This document shows, piece by piece, positions 515 to 22,667 of a stretch of DNA of 64,000 nt; within the stretch, counting starts at the first letter, position 1, and each line of letters opens with the position of its first letter. The position numbers were made by a program, and so were the translations under genes. The stretch is from the sequence record MT446412.1. One strand, written 5' to 3'. The DNA comes from Escherichia virus TH41. Below the pieces are notes generated by a model. The model had not been told where the DNA came from. It did not search any database and saw only the letters and a list, made by a program, of their open reading frames with translations.

Positions 515-2193
515 AAACGTTTAAGTTAAAGAAAGTAACGTATAAAAATATTATGTCGGTAGGCCAGCAACCTATTACAATCCAACTTGATAAGGTCCAA
601 AAGACCTTAGTCACCGGTAAAAATGGCGCTGGGAAATCTACGTTCCTTGAAGCTGTTACATTTGCTCTGTTTGGTAAGCCTTTTCGTGATGTTAAGAAAG
701 GGCAATTAATTAACTCAAGTAACAAGAAAGACCTTTTGGTCGAACTGTGGATGGAATATGATGGAAAAGAATACTATATCAAACGCGGGCAAAAACCCAA
801 TGTTTTTGAAATCTCTTGTGGCGGTAAACGTCTTGATGAATCTGCCAGCAGTAAAGACTTCCAAGCGGAATTTGAACAGCTCATCGGAATGTCCTATGCA
901 AGCTTCAAACAAATTGTCGTACTCGGCACAGCTGGATATACCCCTTTTATGGGCCTATCCACTCCTGCAAGAAGAAAACTCGTCGAAGACCTTTTAGAGG
1001 TTTCTGTACTGGCCGATATGGATAAGCTGAACAAATCTCTTATCCGCGAAGTCAATAGTCAAATCCAGGTGCTGGATGTGCAGCATGATGGTATTGTTCA
1101 ACAGATTAAAATCTATCAGGACAACGAAGACCGTCAAAGAAAATTATCAGGTGATAATCTGTTGCGGCTGCAAACGATGTATGATGAACTTGCCACAGAA
1201 GCACGTGGAATCAAAACGACTATCGAAGAAGCAACGACAAGACTGACCGAGATAATCTTGGGAGAAGACCCTGAGCATGAACTCACGAAGTTAAAGCAAG
1301 AATCATTCCTGATTAAGTCGAAGATAGACGATTACCGAAAGGTTGTTGGTCTGTACGAGAAAGGTGGTTGTTGTCAGACTTGTGCCAGCCAGTTGCATCC
1401 AGGAGACCCTATTGTCGCCAGGATTGAGTCAAAGATTGAAGAATGTAATGTATCAGCTGATAACCATAAAGCTCGCCAGAACGCTGTTCAGGAGCAATTT
1501 GATGCGTATTCTGCTGCAAGACAAAAACAACGTACAATAGCTCAAGACATTCAAACTAAGAAACAAACCTTAGTTCAGACTGTCGAAAAAGCTAAAAAGG
1601 TTAAAGCATTAATCGAGCAAGCTAAGTCAGAATTCATTGACCATGCGGCAGACATTAAAATGCTTCAAGACCAGCTTGATAAAATAGTCAAACAGAAATC
1701 CGACCTTGTGATGGAAAAATATCAACGTGGTATCCTAACGGATATGTTGAAAGATTCCGGTATCAAAGGTGCGATTATTAAGAAATATATTCCTATCTTT
1801 AATAAGCAGATAAATGCTTACCTTAAAGTTATGGAAGCTGATTATAGTTTTACGTTAGATGAAGAGTTCAACGAAACGATTAAATCTCGTGGACGTGAAG
1901 ACTTCAGCTATGCATCATTTAGCCAGGGTGAAAAAGCTCGTATCGATATTGCATTGCTGTTTACATGGCGTGATATTGCTGCGAAAGTATCTGGTGTTAA
2001 TATTAACACCTTGATTCTGGACGAAGTTTTCGATTCAGCTACTGATGTAGAGGGGGTTAAAGCAATTGCTACCATCCTGAACAAATTGGAAGACACCAAC
2101 ATCTTTATTATCAGTCACCGAGACCATGACCCGGAAGCATACGGGCAACATCTCCAGATGAAAAAAGTTGGTCGATTCACTGTTATGGAATAA
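511..2193 (+). CDS. 46: recombination endonuclease ATPase subunit gp46 (Rad50/SbcC-like)
   Basis: 560 aa, same length as T4 gp46; Walker A GKNGAGKST, long coiled-coil centre, C-terminal LILDEVFDSATD Walker B/D-loop. Confidence 0.93.
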   Translation: MKTFKLKKVTYKNIMSVGQQPITIQLDKVQKTLVTGKNGAGKSTFLEAVTFALFGKPFRDVKKGQLINSSNKKDLLVELWMEYDGKEYYIKRGQKPNVFEISCGGKRLDESASSKDFQAEFEQLIGMSYASFKQIVVLGTAGYTPFMGLSTPARRKLVEDLLEVSVLADMDKLNKSLIREVNSQIQVLDVQHDGIVQQIKIYQDNEDRQRKLSGDNLLRLQTMYDELATEARGIKTTIEEATTRLTEIILGEDPEHELTKLKQESFLIKSKIDDYRKVVGLYEKGGCCQTCASQLHPGDPIVARIESKIEECNVSADNHKARQNAVQEQFDAYSAARQKQRTIAQDIQTKKQTLVQTVEKAKKVKALIEQAKSEFIDHAADIKMLQDQLDKIVKQKSDLVMEKYQRGILTDMLKDSGIKGAIIKKYIPIFNKQINAYLKVMEADYSFTLDEEFNETIKSRGREDFSYASFSQGEKARIDIALLFTWRDIAAKVSGVNINTLILDEVFDSATDVEGVKAIATILNKLEDTNIFIISHRDHDPEAYGQHLQMKKVGRFTVME

Positions 2194-2217
2194 TGCTTTA
2201 AACAAGGATGTTATAAT
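2192..2217 (+). promoter_or_regulatory. candidate MotA-dependent middle promoter
   Basis: aaTGCTTtA MotA-box-like motif, 11-nt spacer, TATAAT; coordinates +/-2. Confidence 0.4.
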
Positions 2218-2227
2218 AGAGGCTATT

Positions 2228-2419
2228 ATGGCTGACTTCTTAACCGGGCAGCATTTACTGGCTGTCCCTGAAATTAAACGGTATGTGTTAGTTAATACCT
2301 TTTCGAAAGATGAACACCTTGTTACTGAACGTGACTTACAAAACGCTTTCGGTGAAGAATATGTTAAAATAATCGCGAACAGACACAAAGCCTGGTTCGC
2401 ATATGAATACTTTGATTAA
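2228..2419 (+). CDS. hypothetical protein (63 aa; T4 45.2 position)
   Basis: ORF 2168..2419 with ATG at 2228; small ORF between 46 and 45 as in T4. Confidence 0.5.
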   Translation: MADFLTGQHLLAVPEIKRYVLVNTFSKDEHLVTERDLQNAFGEEYVKIIANRHKAWFAYEYFD

Positions 2420-2443
2420 TTGATAATGAATAGAGAGAATATT

Positions 2444-2851
2444 ATGAACAACGTAACTGCTAAAGATATCCAAGTTAAAACCATCCGCACCGACGCCAAC
2501 CCACATAACCAAAACCGCATCCGCAAATCCTGGGTCCTGGCATGTGATGAAGCATCTGCTACCCGTCTGCAGTCTCTGCCGCAAGAAATTAAATTCATGC
2601 TGTACGGTGTGATTGATACTGATGTATCTGATAAGTGGATTGAACTGATGCGTAATCACTACAACGATTCACTGGCTGCTGGTGCTAAACTGGTTATCGA
2701 CCGTGACGGTTCCGAACGTCTTGAAGATGATTATTGTGTTAACTCTGACGACCATCTGGTGCAAGCTGGTTCTATTATTGCTGCGCAACTTCCAGAGTAT
2801 ATTGAATCTCTTCCGGAAGCTATCCGCAAACAAATGGCAGTTGTTGCTTAA
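2444..2851 (+). CDS. hypothetical protein, RpbA-like by position (135 aa)
   Basis: ORF 2420..2851, ATG at 2444; directly upstream of gene 45 where T4 has rpbA; sequence identity not verified. Confidence 0.4.
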   Translation: MNNVTAKDIQVKTIRTDANPHNQNRIRKSWVLACDEASATRLQSLPQEIKFMLYGVIDTDVSDKWIELMRNHYNDSLAAGAKLVIDRDGSERLEDDYCVNSDDHLVQAGSIIAAQLPEYIESLPEAIRKQMAVVA

Positions 2852-2878
2852 TTTTTGATTTGAATAAAAGGTAATTAA

Positions 2879-3574
2879 ATGAAATTCTCTAAAGACACTA
2901 TCGCAGTTCTGAAAAACTTCACCTCCATTTACTCTGGCATTATGCTTAAGCCGGGTAATACCATCCTGACTCGTTCTGTAACCGGAGCGTCATATGGTGA
3001 ATCTGAAATCAATGATACAATCGACTTTGAAGCTGCAATTTATGACCTGAACGGCTTCTTAAGTATCCTGGGTCTGGTAACTGACCAAGCTGAAGTATCT
3101 CTGGCTGAAGATGCATCGAATATCATTATCAAAGACCAACGTTCAACGATTCACTGGCCTGCAGCTGACCCGAGCACTATCGTGTTCCCTGCTAAGAAGA
3201 TTCCTTTCCCGGTAGCTAAGGTTATCTTCGACCTGAAAGGTAGTGACCTGCAGCAGCTTCTGCGTGTGGCTGGTGGGTTGTCTCTGGATACTTTTGCAAT
3301 CACCAACAAAGACGGTAAGATTGTTATCCATGGTTATAACCAGCTCGAAGATAAAGAATTAGCACGCCCATTGTATTCCCTGGTGTGTGGCGATTACGAA
3401 GGCGATGCAGCGTTTAAATTTATCATTAACAAACTGAACATGAAAATGATTCCGGCTGATTACCGTGTTATGCTTTGGGCGAAAGATGATAAATTTGCTA
3501 CGAAGTTTGAAGGCACACAAGCAAGCTATGTGATTGCAATGGAACAAGGCTCTAGCCACGAATTCCAAGATTAA
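2879..3574 (+). CDS. 45: sliding clamp gp45
   Basis: 231 aa; N-terminus MKFSKDTIAVLKNFTSIYSGIMLK and later blocks closely match T4 gp45. Confidence 0.93.
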   Translation: MKFSKDTIAVLKNFTSIYSGIMLKPGNTILTRSVTGASYGESEINDTIDFEAAIYDLNGFLSILGLVTDQAEVSLAEDASNIIIKDQRSTIHWPAADPSTIVFPAKKIPFPVAKVIFDLKGSDLQQLLRVAGGLSLDTFAITNKDGKIVIHGYNQLEDKELARPLYSLVCGDYEGDAAFKFIINKLNMKMIPADYRVMLWAKDDKFATKFEGTQASYVIAMEQGSSHEFQD

Positions 3575-17523: not shown

Positions 17524-17549
17524 TATGCTTTAAACCAATACGATATAAT
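17524..17549 (+). promoter_or_regulatory. candidate MotA-dependent middle promoter for gene 56
   Basis: taTGCTTtA, 11-nt spacer, TATAAT. Confidence 0.45.
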
Positions 17550-17587
17550 TAACATACAAACAACATGAATTGATAAGGAAAAATATA

Positions 17588-19274: not shown

Positions 19275-19469
19275 ATGAGAATTACAAGTTGGCTTAAAGA
19301 TTGGTTGGTTACTCCAGGGATTGATGATTCCTGGGTGGCCAGAGCCGAGGAAGAAATGCAGCGCGAAGCTGAAGAATGGGCTGCTACAGGGCTTAAAGCT
19401 ATGCAGGAAAAGAAGACCGAACGAGCTGCGCTTAAACTGATGCGTGATATCTACGGAGATAAATCATGA
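19275..19469 (+). CDS. hypothetical protein (64 aa)
   Basis: ORF immediately downstream. Confidence 0.45.
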
Positions 19470-19611
19470 CACAAGAAGAAGCTGAACGCCGGGCAAAAGA
19501 AGCACTGGATTTGCTTTTGAAAATTGGCAGTAAAATGATGGAAGAAAATGAAAAGTACATCAAGGAAAATAAAGTTCCTGATGGTCCATTAGTTGGTAAG
19601 AGGAAAACATT

Positions 19612-20100
19612 ATGAAAGTATATGAATTAGAATTCTATGTCCGTGATTCTGCTGGGCAAACACGACCTTACGATGCAACAGCCTGTCTTATCTTTGCATA
19701 TAATGGCATGGATTCGGTTACTGAGTTGGAAACAAAATTAATGAACCTGACGATGCCAGAAAACGTTATGCTGAAGGTATTTCATAGAAAAAACGTTAAT
19801 GTGGCTGAAGGGTGTCCGTTTACTGTTTCCGAAGCTCTGCATATCAAAGGCTATCGTCACCCGGACCCATATGCAGAAGGTACTGCGGATATTTTCTATA
19901 AAGATAGAGATAAAATGGCCACTGAACGTCTCCAAGGTCGCACATATCTGATTTCCACTACCGACGACCTTGCTGAAGTTGAACGTCAGATTTGGAAGCA
20001 CTTTGATATCGGCTTGCGCTTTACTTTAACAGAAGAAGCTATTCAAGATACTAAAATGCGTGCTCGTATGTATGGTTACGGTCCTATCGGTGGCTACTAA
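19612..20100 (+). CDS. hypothetical protein (162 aa; T4 mrh position)
   Basis: Size and position between soc and the ADP-ribosyltransferase genes as T4 mrh; sequence not independently recognised. Confidence 0.5.
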
Positions 20101-20275
20101 TGGATTTATTTGAACTTTTTGAAGAGCCTAAAGCTCCTACGGAAGCCCGTGTGGACCTAGTTGACGAACTTGATGCGATTATACAGAAGCATGGTTTTAG
20201 TCTCCCAATGGAAGTTCTACGCGACCTGGCCTCATATTACGACGACCCACCTCCATGGGCACCATGGGTGAAACG

Positions 20276-20509
20276 ATGAACTGGTTAACAAATATCCCCA
20301 CATCGGCGCTGGATATCGACCGTAAACACGCTCATAAGGAAATTGAGCAACAAAAAATTAATCGCTTACAAAGGATTAAGACTGAATCCAAGACAATTAA
20401 AGCCGAACGCCCGACAGAATCGAAAAGTTCTTACTCATCATATCAATCTCCGATTGGCATGGCCGCAGACATTGCAGTCTTTGGCGTCCCACTTGGAGTA
20501 TTTAAGTAG
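20276..20509 (+). CDS. hypothetical protein (77 aa)
   Basis: ORF 20255..20509 with ATG at 20276. Confidence 0.45.
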   Translation: MNWLTNIPTSALDIDRKHAHKEIEQQKINRLQRIKTESKTIKAERPTESKSSYSSYQSPIGMAADIAVFGVPLGVFK

Positions 20510-20565
20510 TTTACTTACTCCCCTCCTAATGACATAATGGTCTTTCTTACAACAGAGAGGCCATT

Positions 20566-21126
20566 ATGAACATCATCAAATCTGATACCGAACCCAACCA
20601 GTTAAAATTTAATGAAATGGAGATAGCTTCATTATTTGAATGCCGCGCATCAAAGGTTGATAAGACCTTACATTCAAACATCAACTCAATCATCAAGTCA
20701 AGGTTGTCTATACCTGATACAGTCTTGTATCGTGGGGTAACCCAGCAAGAGATTGATTTGTTAGATGAAGCAAAAGAATCAATGCAACCTTTTGAATTTG
20801 GAAGGATAACCTCCTTTACAGAAGACTATGGTATTGCCAGGGATTTTGCTGCAATGGAATATGTGTCAAGGACTATCATCAGATTGAATCATACAAAAGC
20901 TTTTTGTTATCATGATGCGATGCGCAAAATCGCGCTTGACGTTCCACTGGAATTCTTCAATACAGCCTCTGGTTCCGAACAGGCAGCAACGTTAAGGCGT
21001 GAAGAATACATGGACATGATTGATTCTGAGCTTGAATGGTTTGTTCCAGTTGACCAGAAATTCGTGATAGTTGATGCTGGATTTGTTGATGATTATTATG
21101 TTCTTGACTGTGTACAAGAGCAATAA
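20566..21126 (+). CDS. mono-ADP-ribosyltransferase, ModA/ModB family (first copy)
   Basis: R-S-E motif set: LYRG, TSFT, ELEWFVP; 186 aa; T4 modB position. Confidence 0.6.
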   Translation: MNIIKSDTEPNQLKFNEMEIASLFECRASKVDKTLHSNINSIIKSRLSIPDTVLYRGVTQQEIDLLDEAKESMQPFEFGRITSFTEDYGIARDFAAMEYVSRTIIRLNHTKAFCYHDAMRKIALDVPLEFFNTASGSEQAATLRREEYMDMIDSELEWFVPVDQKFVIVDAGFVDDYYVLDCVQEQ

Positions 21127-21170
21127 GACACGTTAAGATGTTCCTATCAACTACTGATGAGGATAATAAA

Positions 21171-21785
21171 ATGCTGTACACTGATGACGTTTTGAATGGA
21201 ATTATTGACATTGCCGCTTCTAGTGAGTCTTTTCGTAACCAATGTCAAGCGGAGATTGATGCTCTTTATACAGATAATGAACAATCAGTACTCTGGCAGT
21301 GTATGGAAAATAAACCCGACCTGATTCAAGAAGACTTAACCAGGATTATCCGCAACAATCTGAATACTGCACCACCTGCGGCATTGTTCCGTGGTATATC
21401 AAAGAAAACTATGGAATACCTGGAAGATTTCAGATATGTTGGTGCAACGATTGAGTTCAATCGTGTGATGAGTTTTTCCAGGGACTGGCAGGTTGCAAGA
21501 AATTTCGCATCATACAGTTTCTATGGCACAAGGAATATTTTCTGCATAAACAATGCACCATATGCGTATAACTATCAGGAAGCAATCTTTAAAATGATTT
21601 GTGGCGCTCCTCCTGAAGAGTTCAATGGTGCATATCCAGAAGCAACCAGGAAGTCAAACTTACACCTGGTTAATGATGAGGATGAGTTTATGTTTCCCGC
21701 TGGGACTACGCTTCGCGTAGACTTGATTGAGACACACCCATTGAATAACCTTTATACTGTTTGGCATTTGACTGTTTTGAACTAA
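21171..21785 (+). CDS. mono-ADP-ribosyltransferase, ModA/ModB family (second copy)
   Basis: LFRG, SFSRD, DEDEFMFP; ATG at 21171 after leader CTATCAACTACTGATGAGG; 204 aa. Confidence 0.6.
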   Translation: MLYTDDVLNGIIDIAASSESFRNQCQAEIDALYTDNEQSVLWQCMENKPDLIQEDLTRIIRNNLNTAPPAALFRGISKKTMEYLEDFRYVGATIEFNRVMSFSRDWQVARNFASYSFYGTRNIFCINNAPYAYNYQEAIFKMICGAPPEEFNGAYPEATRKSNLHLVNDEDEFMFPAGTTLRVDLIETHPLNNLYTVWHLTVLN

Positions 21786-21844
21786 CTAAAGACCTTAGAA
21801 CCATTATACACAGTAAAAATAAAAGCGTTAAAGGCGAAAAAGTA

Positions 21845-21873
21845 GTGTACACACCCAATGGATGGTGTATAAT
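21845..21873 (+). promoter_or_regulatory. early promoter cassette
   Basis: GTGTACA, 16 nt, TATAAT inside ATGGAT..ATCCAT inverted repeat; leader CCATACTGAGTT. Confidence 0.6.
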
Positions 21874-21920
21874 GAATCCATACTGAGTTGCCAAATCGTC
21901 CGTAAGATGAGAAAAATATC

Positions 21921-22667
21921 ATGACTTTATCAAAAACCAAAACGTTGAAAGTTAAACGTCGTCTGGAACACACTCAAGCTTCCGCTAAACGCCGCGGTAA
22001 AGACTTTAACCTGGATTTTGATTATCTGGTTAATATTCTTGACCAAAAAGTTTGTGCTTATTCTGGTGAGACATTTAATAACTCTATTGAAGGTGAGAAG
22101 TTATCATTAGAGCGTTTTAACAATGATATTGGTTATATCAAGGGTAATGTTATTCCTGTTAAAAAGAAATACAATACCATGCGTTCTGATTGGTCCTTGG
22201 ATGAGCTTAAACAACGTCGCGATGATGTTGCTGTAAAAATTGCTCGCCCCTCTGCCAAGAAGATTGAAAAGTTAAATCTGACTTCAGAGAAATGGGAACA
22301 GATTAAAAAGTCATATACTCATATCAAGAACATCCAGCACAAACGTGATAATCGCGTTAAGCATTATGCTCAAATGAGTAAATCAGAGCAGTCCAAAGAA
22401 AACCAATTAAAAATGGTTGCTCTGAAGGCTCGCATTGATGGTTCCCGTGTTGCGGAAGGACATGAGCTTACTAAATTGAATGTCCTGCTCAAAGGTAATG
22501 ACTGGAAAGTTACCAAGAAATTAACTGATGCTGAAACGCTTTTTGATTGCTATGATAAAATCATTCAAGGTCTTGAGCGTTTTGAGAAGATTGGTTTTAT
22601 TGGTAAATTAAAACTGAAACGTGGTCTGCCTTTGAACGCGTCAATTTTTAAACTGATTAGAGGTTAA
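21921..22667 (+). CDS. hypothetical lysine-rich protein (248 aa; T4 srd position)
   Basis: Position downstream of the ART genes and upstream of dda; size close to T4 Srd. Confidence 0.4.
   Translation: MTLSKTKTLKVKRRLEHTQASAKRRGKDFNLDFDYLVNILDQKVCAYSGETFNNSIEGEKLSLERFNNDIGYIKGNVIPVKKKYNTMRSDWSLDELKQRRDDVAVKIARPSAKKIEKLNLTSEKWEQIKKSYTHIKNIQHKRDNRVKHYAQMSKSEQSKENQLKMVALKARIDGSRVAEGHELTKLNVLLKGNDWKVTKKLTDAETLFDCYDKIIQGLERFEKIGFIGKLKLKRGLPLNASIFKLIRG

Follow-up and report, generated by a model that had tools for sequence, protein, structure and literature searches.

Two adjacent genes of Escherichia virus TH41, ORF1 and ORF2, very probably occupy the modB and modA positions of this phage and code for paralogous stand-alone mono-ADP-ribosyltransferases (ARTs) of ca. 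190-200 aa, which belong to the Mod family of the R-S-E clade. The ADP-ribosyltransferase chemistry of both proteins is well supported.

Organization of the mod Locus

The stretch of DNA analyzed here (64,000 nucleotides, referred to as the window) is from a Gaprivervirus, a T4-like phage of Straboviridae, and shares 97-99% identity with phages TH44, UPEC01, and VR20. The original prediction was that the window contains two adjacent open reading frames, each with an R-S-E signature. Both frames are found on the plus strand, and the quoted motifs are present in them and make up a complete R-S-ExE motif in each (Table 1). Flanked by modA.2 and srd, the genes lie in tandem, and the lengths of their products agree with those expected for stand-alone Mod-family proteins (ca. 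180-230 aa).

Table 1. Features of the TH41 mod locus (positions in the window)
Feature	Coordinates	Strand	Evidence
T4-early-type σ70 promoter-like site	20509..20538	+	Consensus scan, 9/12 with TG extension
Predicted RNA hairpin	20533..20568	+	MFE -12.7 kcal/mol, core z = -4.27
ORF1, 186 aa, predicted Mod-family arginine-type ADP-ribosyltransferase	20566..21126	+	Motif, PHROG 832, AlphaFold, synteny
ORF1 Arg motif LYRG, R56 codon	20731..20733	+	
ORF1 Ser motif TSFT, S83 codon (S83-F-T)	20812..20814	+	
ORF1 Glu pair ELEWFVP, E155 and E157 codons	21028..21030 and 21034..21036	+	
Intergenic spacer, 44 nt	21127..21170	+	GAGGA Shine-Dalgarno at 21159-21163; unconserved in-frame ATG at 21138
ORF2, 204 aa, predicted Mod-family arginine-type ADP-ribosyltransferase	21171..21785	+	Motif, PHROG 832, AlphaFold, synteny
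ORF2 Arg motif LFRG, R74 codon (204-aa numbering)	21390..21392	+	
ORF2 Ser motif SFSRD, S101 codon (S101-F-S)	21471..21473	+	
ORF2 Glu pair DEDEFMFP, E170 and E172 codons	21678..21680 and 21684..21686	+	
Promoter-like site TGTACA-16-TATAAT	21846..21873	+	Consensus scan, 10/12; 135-nt gap between ORF2 and srd

The order of genes around the pair (srh, modA.4, modA.3, modA.2, [modB, modA], srd, dda.1, dda) is the same as in T4, with synteny extending to soc, mrh.2, and mrh.1 before srh and to dexA after dda. The pair is found in the same context in T4, APCEc01, FB, SP18, and VR20. In the TH44, UPEC01, and VR20 records, the counterparts of ORF1 and ORF2 are named modB and modA, and the near-identical genomes that label the pair modB/modA include VR20 (96.5%), UPEC01, VR7, and SP18. 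The tandem order proposed at the outset, modB followed by modA as in T4, is thus borne out by both synteny and public annotation. Since near-identical published phages already carry these annotations, the identity of the genes is known, and the finding is correct but ordinary.

The same two genes, in the same context and with few amino acid changes, are essentially shared by VR20, VR7, UPEC01, TH44, and SP18: VR20 ModB is 96.8% identical to ORF1, and the TH44 homologue is 99.5% identical to ORF2. SP18 differs in carrying an old, divergent allele of ORF2 (67.9% amino acid identity by tblastn; 135/203 aligned positions). Proteins of the ORF1 type, at 90% identity or more, are present in only 32 phage records, while everything else is below 60%. 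The mod locus itself stands out as a 91-98% patch in a genome that is otherwise 100% identical to UPEC01; it is, by this pattern, a recombination patch.

While the reading frames are as originally given, the start of ORF2 most likely is the ATG at 21171, not the ATG at 21138 that opens a longer frame (21138..21785, 215 aa), because a GAGGA Shine-Dalgarno sequence is located 7 nt upstream and the start is conserved in relatives. An alignment of the gene junction with Dhakavirus and Mosigvirus relatives revealed that the equivalent of the 21171 start is kept and the upstream ATG is absent, and all database homologues of ORF2 (200-204 aa) start at this position. With this start, the intergenic spacer is 44 nt rather than 11 nt long.

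Family Membership and Relationship to T4 ModA and ModB

Assignment of both proteins to the ModA/ModB-type family was upheld by profile searches, alignment with the T4 enzymes, and predicted folds. The PHROG 832 profile ("RNA polymerase ADP-ribosylase") matched ORF1 with an E-value of 2.8e-27 and ORF2 with an E-value of 1.8e-38. In BLASTP comparisons, T4 ModB (1.5e-23, 79.7 bits) and T4 ModA (2.6e-12, 49.3 bits) were matched by ORF1, and the corresponding values for ORF2 were 1.4e-28 (94.0 bits) and 4.3e-19 (68.6 bits). All close homologues carry the precomputed Pfam tag PF26816. An exhaustive HMMER search for relatives yielded 152 clusters at E <= 1e-3 and 16 at E <= 1e-30. No matches were obtained in an NCBIfam scan of both proteins, and a scan of a Pfam-A copy that lacks the PF26816 model returned only sub-threshold matches to DRAT, Sld5, and FTR, which were treated as noise.

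Both proteins are 27-36% identical to the characterized T4 enzymes. Mod proteins of Tevenvirinae separate into five subfamilies, each recovered in 100/100 bootstrap replicates, with 22-34% identity between subfamilies. In neighbor-joining trees, the ORF2 clade grouped with T4 ModA in 27/100 and with T4 ModB in 6/100 replicates, while the ORF1 clade showed no specific grouping with the T4 ModB clade (0/100). Neither isoelectric point nor charge separated ModA-like from ModB-like proteins. Thus, no clear orthology links ORF1 or ORF2 with T4 ModA or T4 ModB, and, given the low identity, the ModB-leaning scores, and the bootstrap values, the assignment of targets by gene position is unproven.

Both proteins could be active ARTs whose substrates are unlike those of T4 ModA and ModB, e.g., other host proteins (defence or metabolic) or nucleic acids; RNAylation, if either copy is competent for it, might then not belong to the modB-position gene. 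We consider this possible, if rather unlikely. The division of the family into separate subfamilies with low mutual identity speaks for it, as do the confinement of the ORF1 type to a small set of phages, the presence of another upstream subfamily at the same position in Dhakavirus and Mosigvirus, and the swapping of the locus by recombination between otherwise identical genomes. In a published survey, viral ARTs are mostly fast-evolving, conflict-related enzymes (PMC9503650), which points in the same direction. Against this, the position between modA.2 and srd is conserved, and exactly two paralogues are present in 4/4 genera examined, suggesting that two functional roles have been retained. 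The ARTT/C-terminal part of ORF2 is, in addition, somewhat nearer to T4 ModA than to T4 ModB (37% versus 27% identity, from small counts).

Catalytic Motif, Predicted Fold, and Selection

The alignment check that had been proposed for the active-site residues was carried out, and these residues do align with those of T4 ModA and ModB: all four motif positions of ORF1 and ORF2 share columns with the T4 proteins. In an alignment of 38 family members, the motif columns contain R in 38/38, G in 38/38, S in 37/38, and both glutamates in 38/38 sequences. R56-G57 of ORF1 and R74-G75 of ORF2 align with R73-G74 of T4 ModB, and mutation of R73 in T4 ModB abolishes both ADP-ribosylation and RNAylation (PMC10468400). 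The motif match is far beyond chance.

AlphaFold models of ORF1 (pLDDT 88.4) and ORF2 (pLDDT 91.3, pTM 0.85) place the motif residues in comparable secondary-structure context. In both models, the arginine lies in a strand and the serine in the core strand that comes next (R56 in strand 54-57 and S83 in strand 82-85 of ORF1; R74 in strand 71-75 and S101 in strand 100-103 of ORF2), and the ExE segment just precedes a strand (157-160 and 172-175, respectively); the proposed geometry of the motif is derived from this context. When the models were compared with the PDB using Foldseek, the best 50 matches listed were R-S-E ARTs only (probability 1.00, E 4e-7 to ca. 1e-4), and the top-ranked ones had E-values of ca. 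1e-5 or lower; TM-scores were modest (0.4-0.58). The best matches were HopU1, iota toxin Ia, C3, and CDTa for ORF1 (E 4e-7 to 1e-5) and C3bot, Certhrax, HopU1, and XopAI for ORF2 (E ca. 1e-6). In BFVD, the best matches of ORF2 were models of phage modB/modA proteins (TM 0.80-0.87). Sequence searches of the PDB, with the single proteins and with the family profile, revealed no related solved structure; the only hits, to truncated haemoglobin and to glutathione reductase (E ca. 1), were attributed to chance.

It is very improbable that one copy is a catalytically dead paralogue that acts only in binding or as a decoy. A degenerate member is frequent in tandem paralogues, and ORF1 lacks about 20 N-terminal residues present in ORF2 and T4 ModB, with its first 11 residues predicted to be disordered. 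However, neither copy, nor any member of the two subfamilies, has lost R, G, S, or ExE, and both copies are confidently predicted to be complete ART domains. Both are also under purifying selection: dN/dS was 0.10-0.21 for ORF1 in comparisons with VR20, SP18, and UPEC01 and 0.06-0.10 for ORF2 in comparisons with UPEC01 and VR20 (in the codon alignment of ORF2 with SP18, synonymous sites were saturated). Finally, R, S, and ExE alone are low in information and Pfam gave only sub-threshold DRAT matches, as would be the case for a coincidental motif in unrelated small phage proteins, but the PHROG profile E-values, the full-length BLASTP alignments to T4 ModA and ModB, and fold matches exclusively to ARTs refute this reading.

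Transcription and Translation Signals

The second gene had been described as preceded by a promoter-less cassette leader. The first half of this description holds, as scans of the spacer for σ70 promoters and for MotA boxes returned nothing above chance; the "leader", however, is simply the short spacer with its Shine-Dalgarno sequence, and the true cassette-like element, which combines an early promoter, a stem-loop, and a Shine-Dalgarno sequence, is found upstream of ORF1 and not of ORF2. The ORF2 leader folds no better than shuffled sequence (z -1.1), and no MotA-box middle promoter was detected between positions 17,550 and 25,150. A σ70-like match within ORF1 (21071-21099, 9/12) was rejected as an ORF2 promoter since its score is at chance level.

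The putative promoter upstream of ORF1 consists of a GTTTACT -35 element (20509-20515), a 17-nt spacer, and an extended -10 element, TGa-CATAAT (hexamer at 20533-20538). The GTTTAC -35 sequence and the -10 element are position-aligned before the first mod gene of VR20, SP18, FB (Dhakavirus), APCEc01 (Mosigvirus), and T4; the early-type element, a predicted promoter, is conserved across four genera. A strict search of the window for GTTTAC-N16-18-WATRAT returned only two other sites. The site departs from the consensus TTTACW-N17-TAYWAT of T4/PST PeSL promoters (PMC4122927) only at the first base of its -10 element.

The 5' arm of the predicted hairpin (20533-20547) is formed by the -10 box and the bases downstream of it, while the 3' arm (20554-20568) contains the Shine-Dalgarno sequence AGAGAGG (20554-20560) and AUUAUG, which includes the ORF1 start codon. 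Equivalent hairpins can be folded in FB (z -4.8), APCEc01 (z -6.3), and T4 (z -5.4), and RNAalifold analysis supports 15 pairs, 6 of them with compensatory double changes. Over the whole window, searches with Rfam (at the gathering threshold) and ARAGORN gave no matches.

T4-type phages contain regulatory cassettes known as PeSLs (promoter-early stem-loops; Arbiol 2010, Comeau 2014). In a PeSL, the -10 element is overlapped by the stem-loop, and a Shine-Dalgarno sequence and an ATG are located at the 3' end (PMC2839356). The element before ORF1 has the same layout, an early σ70-type promoter, a stem-loop over the -10 element, and a Shine-Dalgarno sequence and ATG on the 3' side, and we regard it as a PeSL-like cassette with a predicted regulatory role. 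It differs in that the Shine-Dalgarno sequence and start codon are also paired in the stem, an arrangement suggestive of translational masking in place of, or besides, termination, and in that no T-run follows the stem. At the other end of the pair, the candidate promoter between ORF2 and srd likely marks the start of the next transcription unit, which bounds the mod pair on its 3' side.

Discussion

The two genes are proposed to function as follows. Soon after infection, host σ70 RNA polymerase would transcribe both as one unit from the promoter upstream of ORF1, and the Shine-Dalgarno sequence in the spacer would serve translation of ORF2. Each enzyme would bind NAD+ in a split β-sandwich ART fold, holding it by the arginine on strand β1 and the serine of the S-x-S/T strand; in the ExE (ARTT) loop, the second glutamate would be catalytic, and the first would steer transfer to arginine side chains. 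ADP-ribose attached to host proteins would then redirect host transcription and translation machinery.

In T4, ModA (200 aa) modifies both α subunits of RNA polymerase by ADP-ribosylation of Arg265. T4 ModB (207 aa) is an NAD-protein ADP-ribosyltransferase and an RNAylating enzyme, whose targets are rS1, rL2, EF-Tu, and trigger factor. By analogy with T4, one TH41 copy may modify Arg265 of RNA polymerase α and the other S1 and further translation proteins, including translation factors, and the activity of the second may include transfer of NAD-capped RNA.

A textbook host-takeover module is thus confirmed in one more T4-like phage. The database labels "modA" and "modB" are positional and not based on orthology, and target predictions copied from T4 are therefore unproven for the Gaprivervirus group. 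The mod locus acts like a slot for two genes that can be exchanged. It is possible, if rather unlikely, that ORF1 and ORF2 represent Mod subfamilies apart from both T4 ModA and T4 ModB, that at least five well-separated subfamilies, swapped by recombination, fill this single locus across Tevenvirinae, and that Gaprivervirus phages may therefore employ it for ARTs that differ from those of T4 in host targets or in RNAylation. T4 ModB RNAylates ribosomal proteins, and bioconjugation applications are now being built on it. A comparison of divergent Mod subfamilies, ORF1 and ORF2 included, could reveal the features that confer use of NAD-RNA, which would be useful for bioconjugation.

Comparison with Known Systems

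T4 ModB shares with the window the family, fold, R-S-ExE motif, first place in a tandem pair, and flanking genes, and is also preceded by an early promoter and a hairpin that covers the ribosome-binding site, as is ORF1. Of the T4 proteins, ModB gives the highest score with both ORF1 (30-33% identity) and ORF2 (36%); relative to it, ORF1 lacks 21 aa at the N-terminus. T4 ModA, likewise alike in family, fold, and motif, is second of its pair and directly upstream of srd; it is 28% identical to ORF1 and 35% to ORF2, shares the segment DExE-x-M-x-P-A-G with ORF2, and a T4-type modA model superimposes on that of ORF2 with a TM-score of 0.85. The N-terminal helices and core of ORF2 are nearer to T4 ModB than to ModA. 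The T4 genes overlap at the modB stop codon (ATGA), whereas the two genes of the window are separated by a spacer.

The R / S-x-S / ExE active-site logic is common to C3bot, iota toxin Ia, CDTa, VIP2, Certhrax, and HopU1. These C3-like and binary-toxin ARTs, the best solved-structure matches of both models, differ in sequence (9-15% identity) and match the ORF1 and ORF2 models with TM-scores of only 0.4-0.58. As exotoxins or effectors of bacteria, they act on eukaryotic targets, in contrast to the predicted phage early proteins described here.

Gene pair and genomic context

Two adjacent ORFs, ORF1 and ORF2, were found exactly where the original prediction had placed a tandem pair of ModA/ModB-type ADP-ribosyltransferases (ARTs), and all six sequence strings quoted for their R-S-E motifs are present (Table). 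The claimed likeness to the T4 modB-modA arrangement also holds, as the gene order, followed by srd, matches that of T4 (modB, 207 aa; modA, 200 aa; srd) and of VR20, and a tandem pair lies at the equivalent place in SP18, Dhakavirus FB and Mosigvirus APCEc01. Over the 1.7-kb region, identity is 97.2% to Escherichia virus TH44, 96.5% to phage vB_EcoM_VR20, and 94-95% to VR25, VR26, VR7, and UPEC01, all of which belong to Gaprivervirus (Straboviridae, Tevenvirinae). The VR20 record gives the pair as modB (186 aa) and modA (204 aa), within the order soc, mrh.2, mrh.1, srh, modA.4, modA.3, modA.2, hypothetical, modB, modA, srd, dda.1, dda, dexA.2, dexA. The pair is thus already known from the annotation of near-identical genomes; the refinements offered here are a probable ORF2 start at 21171, a likely single early transcription unit whose promoter and hairpin are PeSL-like, a recombination patch, and caution about targets. 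Genes near the pair encode a modA.3 homologue, which is a T4 MRH-like protein (PF24070, E 2.7e-45), the Srd anti-sigma factor (PHROG 1400, E 2.6e-98), a Dda.1/Y01A protein (PF25693), and Dda helicase (PHROG 325, E 3e-167).

Between the modA.2 homologue and ORF1 lies an 84-aa ORF that has no counterpart in T4 and is labelled hypothetical in VR20, SP18, and UPEC01. Its product is rich in Ser and ends in a hydrophobic tail (…PIGMAADIAVFGVPLGVFK), and an NCBIfam search with it gave no match. In the UPEC01 record, MW233709.1, the modA.4, modA.3, and modA.2 homologues are named 'molybdenum ABC transporter…', apparently because a bacterial gene is also called modA, and the ART product is written as 'NAP-protein ADP-ribosyltransferase'.

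Table. Coordinates of features at the mod locus (window positions unless a comparison genome is named)
Feature	Position	Strand	Remarks
84-aa ORF	20255-20509	+	
Early promoter-like site	20509-20538	+	GTTTACT-N17-(TGa)CATAAT; upstream of ORF1
Hairpin	20533-20568	+	-10 box to ORF1 start codon; 3' arm with SD and AUG
Conserved promoter-hairpin element	20509-20568		L002 (T4) 2433-2477; L004 (FB) 1366-1410; L005 (APCEc01) 1276-1320
ORF1	20566-21126	+	186 aa; LYRG, TSFT, ELEWFVP
ORF2	21138-21785	+	215 aa from first ATG; LFRG, SFSRD, DEDEFMFP
Heptamer TATCAAC	21147-21153		ORF1-ORF2 spacer
SP18 modA	L003 (SP18) 2372-2986		compared with window 21171-21785
Sigma-70-like site	21846-21873	+	TGTACA-16-TATAAT; score 10/12; in 135-nt ORF2-srd gap
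Terminator-like hairpin	21871-21848	-	scan call; overlaps the sigma-70-like site
Divergent patch versus UPEC01 (L006)	about 20,190-22,190		~2 kb; end of modA.2, 84-aa ORF, ORF1, ORF2, start of srd
UPEC01 genes named 'molybdenum ABC transporter…'	L006 (UPEC01) 2078-2891		window about 19466-20279

Family membership and predicted fold

Both proteins matched PHROG 832, 'RNA polymerase ADP-ribosylase' (E 2.8e-27 for ORF1 and 1.8e-38 for ORF2). In BLASTP comparisons, ORF1 scored 79.7 bits with T4 ModB (E 1.5e-23, 33% identity) and 49.3 bits with T4 ModA, and ORF2 scored 94.0 bits (E 1.4e-28, 36% identity) and 68.6 bits (35% identity), respectively; ORF1 and ORF2 matched each other at 64.7 bits (28% identity), and T4 ModA matched ModB at 59.3 bits. 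The R-S-EXE motif that marks arginine-specific ARTs is present in both ModA and ModB (PMC10468400). ORF1 residues R56, G57, S83, E155, and E157 are among the invariant columns of a four-way alignment with ORF2, T4 ModA, and T4 ModB. The column holding R56 and the ORF2 motif Arg corresponds to R73 of T4 ModB, in which the R73A and G74A substitutions abolished both ADP-ribosylation and RNAylation (PMC10468400). When 1.84 billion cluster representatives were searched exhaustively with HMMER, 152 clusters of relatives emerged at E <= 1e-3, of which 16 also passed E <= 1e-30. When 28 of these relatives were aligned with the window, T4, SP18, FB, and APCEc01 proteins, the R, the G, and both Glu residues were present in 38/38 sequences, and the Ser in 37/38.

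AlphaFold2 models built from 13-sequence alignments were confident for ORF2 (pLDDT 91.3, pTM 0.85) and for ORF1 (pLDDT 88.4, pTM 0.81; disorder confined to residues 1-11). The motif residues of both models are placed as in R-S-E ARTs, with R within a strand, S-x-S/T within the next core strand, and ExE immediately ahead of a strand. No solved Mod protein structure was detectable by sequence searches. The top Foldseek PDB matches were all R-S-E ARTs (C3bot, Certhrax, HopU1, XopAI, Tre1, iota toxin Ia, CDTa, and VIP2), the leading ones with E 4e-7 to 1e-5, probability 1.00, and TM-scores of 0.4-0.58. Among predicted viral structures, the best matches of ORF2 were phage Mod proteins labelled either modB or modA; the model compared with Serratia phage CBH8 'modB' at TM 0.86 (39% identity) and with Shigella phage Sf22 'modA' at TM 0.85 (28% identity). 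Failure of the catalytic residues to align had been named as the outcome that would speak against the assignment; the residues do align, at the level of sequence and secondary structure, and the outcome therefore favours the finding. PHROG 832, BLASTP, motif, and predicted folds agree on a ModA/ModB-type ART identity. We conclude that the finding is real and its interpretation correct at the family level.

Relation to T4 ModA and ModB

A neighbour-joining tree of the 38 sequences (100 bootstrap replicates) contained five groups, each recovered in 100/100 replicates: a T4 ModA type; a T4 ModB type; a 'downstream' type (window ORF2, SP18, FB, and APCEc01); a Dhakavirus/Mosigvirus 'upstream' type (FB and APCEc01); and an ORF1 type (window, SP18, and sequence P0014), with sequences P0024 and P0015 added at 99/100. 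Bootstrapping gave no support for relations between the five groups. The ORF2 type joined ModA in 27/100 replicates and ModB in 6/100, and the ORF1 type joined ModB in 0/100; between-group identities were 22-34%. By segment-wise identity, with small counts, the N-terminal helices and R-to-S core of ORF2 are nearer ModB, while its ARTT/C-terminal part is nearer ModA (37% versus 27% for ModB). The database modB and modA labels are therefore positional, and judged by these comparisons neither ORF1 nor ORF2 can be shown to be orthologous to T4 ModA or ModB.

In T4, ModA modifies Arg265 of both RNAP alpha subunits (PMC2988021); ModB has translation proteins as its substrates, and it RNAylates rS1 and rL2 (PMC10468400). 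Since orthology is not demonstrable, the targets of ORF1 and ORF2 are inferred, and these activities may be transferred to the window proteins, by analogy, as hypotheses only. That these divergent Mod subfamilies differ from T4 ModA and ModB in their substrates or NAD-RNA use is a tentative and rather unlikely proposal. The dN/dS values (ORF1: 0.10 versus VR20, 0.16 versus SP18, 0.21 versus UPEC01; ORF2: 0.10 versus VR20, 0.06 versus UPEC01) indicate that selection maintains both genes.

Mosaicism of the mod locus

Over its first 25 kb, the window matches UPEC01 at 99.0% identity. In 200-nt bins, identity is 100% on both flanks and 91-98% across the divergent patch, which suggests that exactly the mod module was recently exchanged by recombination. 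ORF1 of the window and SP18 share 94% protein identity (dS 0.14), and in a codon alignment of ORF2 135/203 residues are identical and synonymous sites are saturated (pS 0.77). The breakpoint falls directly after the ORF2 start codon, and the SP18 ORF2 allele is closer to that of Dhakavirus FB (81%). These comparisons indicate that SP18 ORF2 is an old divergent allele beside a closely related ORF1. Proteins of the ORF1 type with >= 90% identity were matched in 32 phage records, with every remaining match under 60%. Together, the UPEC01 patch, the SP18 break, and this distribution indicate that the mod locus is an exchangeable slot, a feature typical for the accessory regions of T4-type phages.

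Probable ORF2 start codon and the intergenic spacer

The ATG at 21138 is without a good Shine-Dalgarno (SD) sequence, and its counterpart is ATC in FB and absent in APCEc01. The ATG at 21171, preceded at 7 nt by GAGGA (21159-21163), is kept in 5/5 aligned genomes (window, VR20, SP18, FB, and APCEc01). ORF2 homologues in databases are 200-204 aa long, and the annotated form is short in VR20, FB, and UPEC01 and long in SP18. The probable start is 21171 rather than 21138, which makes the spacer 44 nt. The stretch ahead of ORF2 had been described as a promoter-less cassette leader. No sigma-70-like site was found in the spacer and no MotA-box middle-promoter pattern in the mod region, and the spacer folded no better than shuffled sequence. 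ORF2 is therefore most likely co-transcribed with ORF1, and in this sense 'promoter-less' is right.

The spacer heptamer TATCAAC is invariant in the same five genomes, even though the bases flanking it have diverged in FB and APCEc01. Across the window, the MotA-box pattern TGCTTNA-N11-13-TANNNT has 11 matches (1661-59459, all on the plus strand; 3.2 expected by chance), those nearest the mod genes being at 17526 and 25150; the excess fits T4-type middle-mode transcription.

Promoter-like site and hairpin upstream of ORF1

Both boxes of the early promoter-like site upstream of ORF1 are positionally aligned in VR20, SP18, FB, APCEc01, and T4, and its -10 box shows complementarity to the region around the first mod gene's start codon. 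The core of the resulting hairpin has a folding energy of -12.7 kcal/mol (z -4.3), and equivalent hairpins have z-scores of -4.8 (FB), -6.3 (APCEc01), and -5.4 (T4); the RNAalifold consensus contains 15 pairs, 6 with compensatory double changes. RNA begun at the ORF1 promoter (~20545) would be without the hairpin 5' arm and translatable, while in read-through RNA from upstream promoters the hairpin would form and mask the ribosome-binding site. We infer that translational masking would operate in read-through RNA only.

The pair most likely forms a single early transcription unit with a promoter and hairpin like those of the promoter-early stem-loop (PeSL), a regulatory cassette of T4-type phages. 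In a PeSL, an early promoter is combined with a stem-loop, which in most cases overlaps the -10 box, and with a 3' SD and ATG (PMC2839356); the T4-type promoter consensus of PeSLs is TTTACW-N17-TAYWAT (PMC4122927). The element upstream of ORF1 matches this description in its early promoter, its stem-loop on the -10 box, and its 3' SD and ATG, and its promoter-like site is one base off the consensus.
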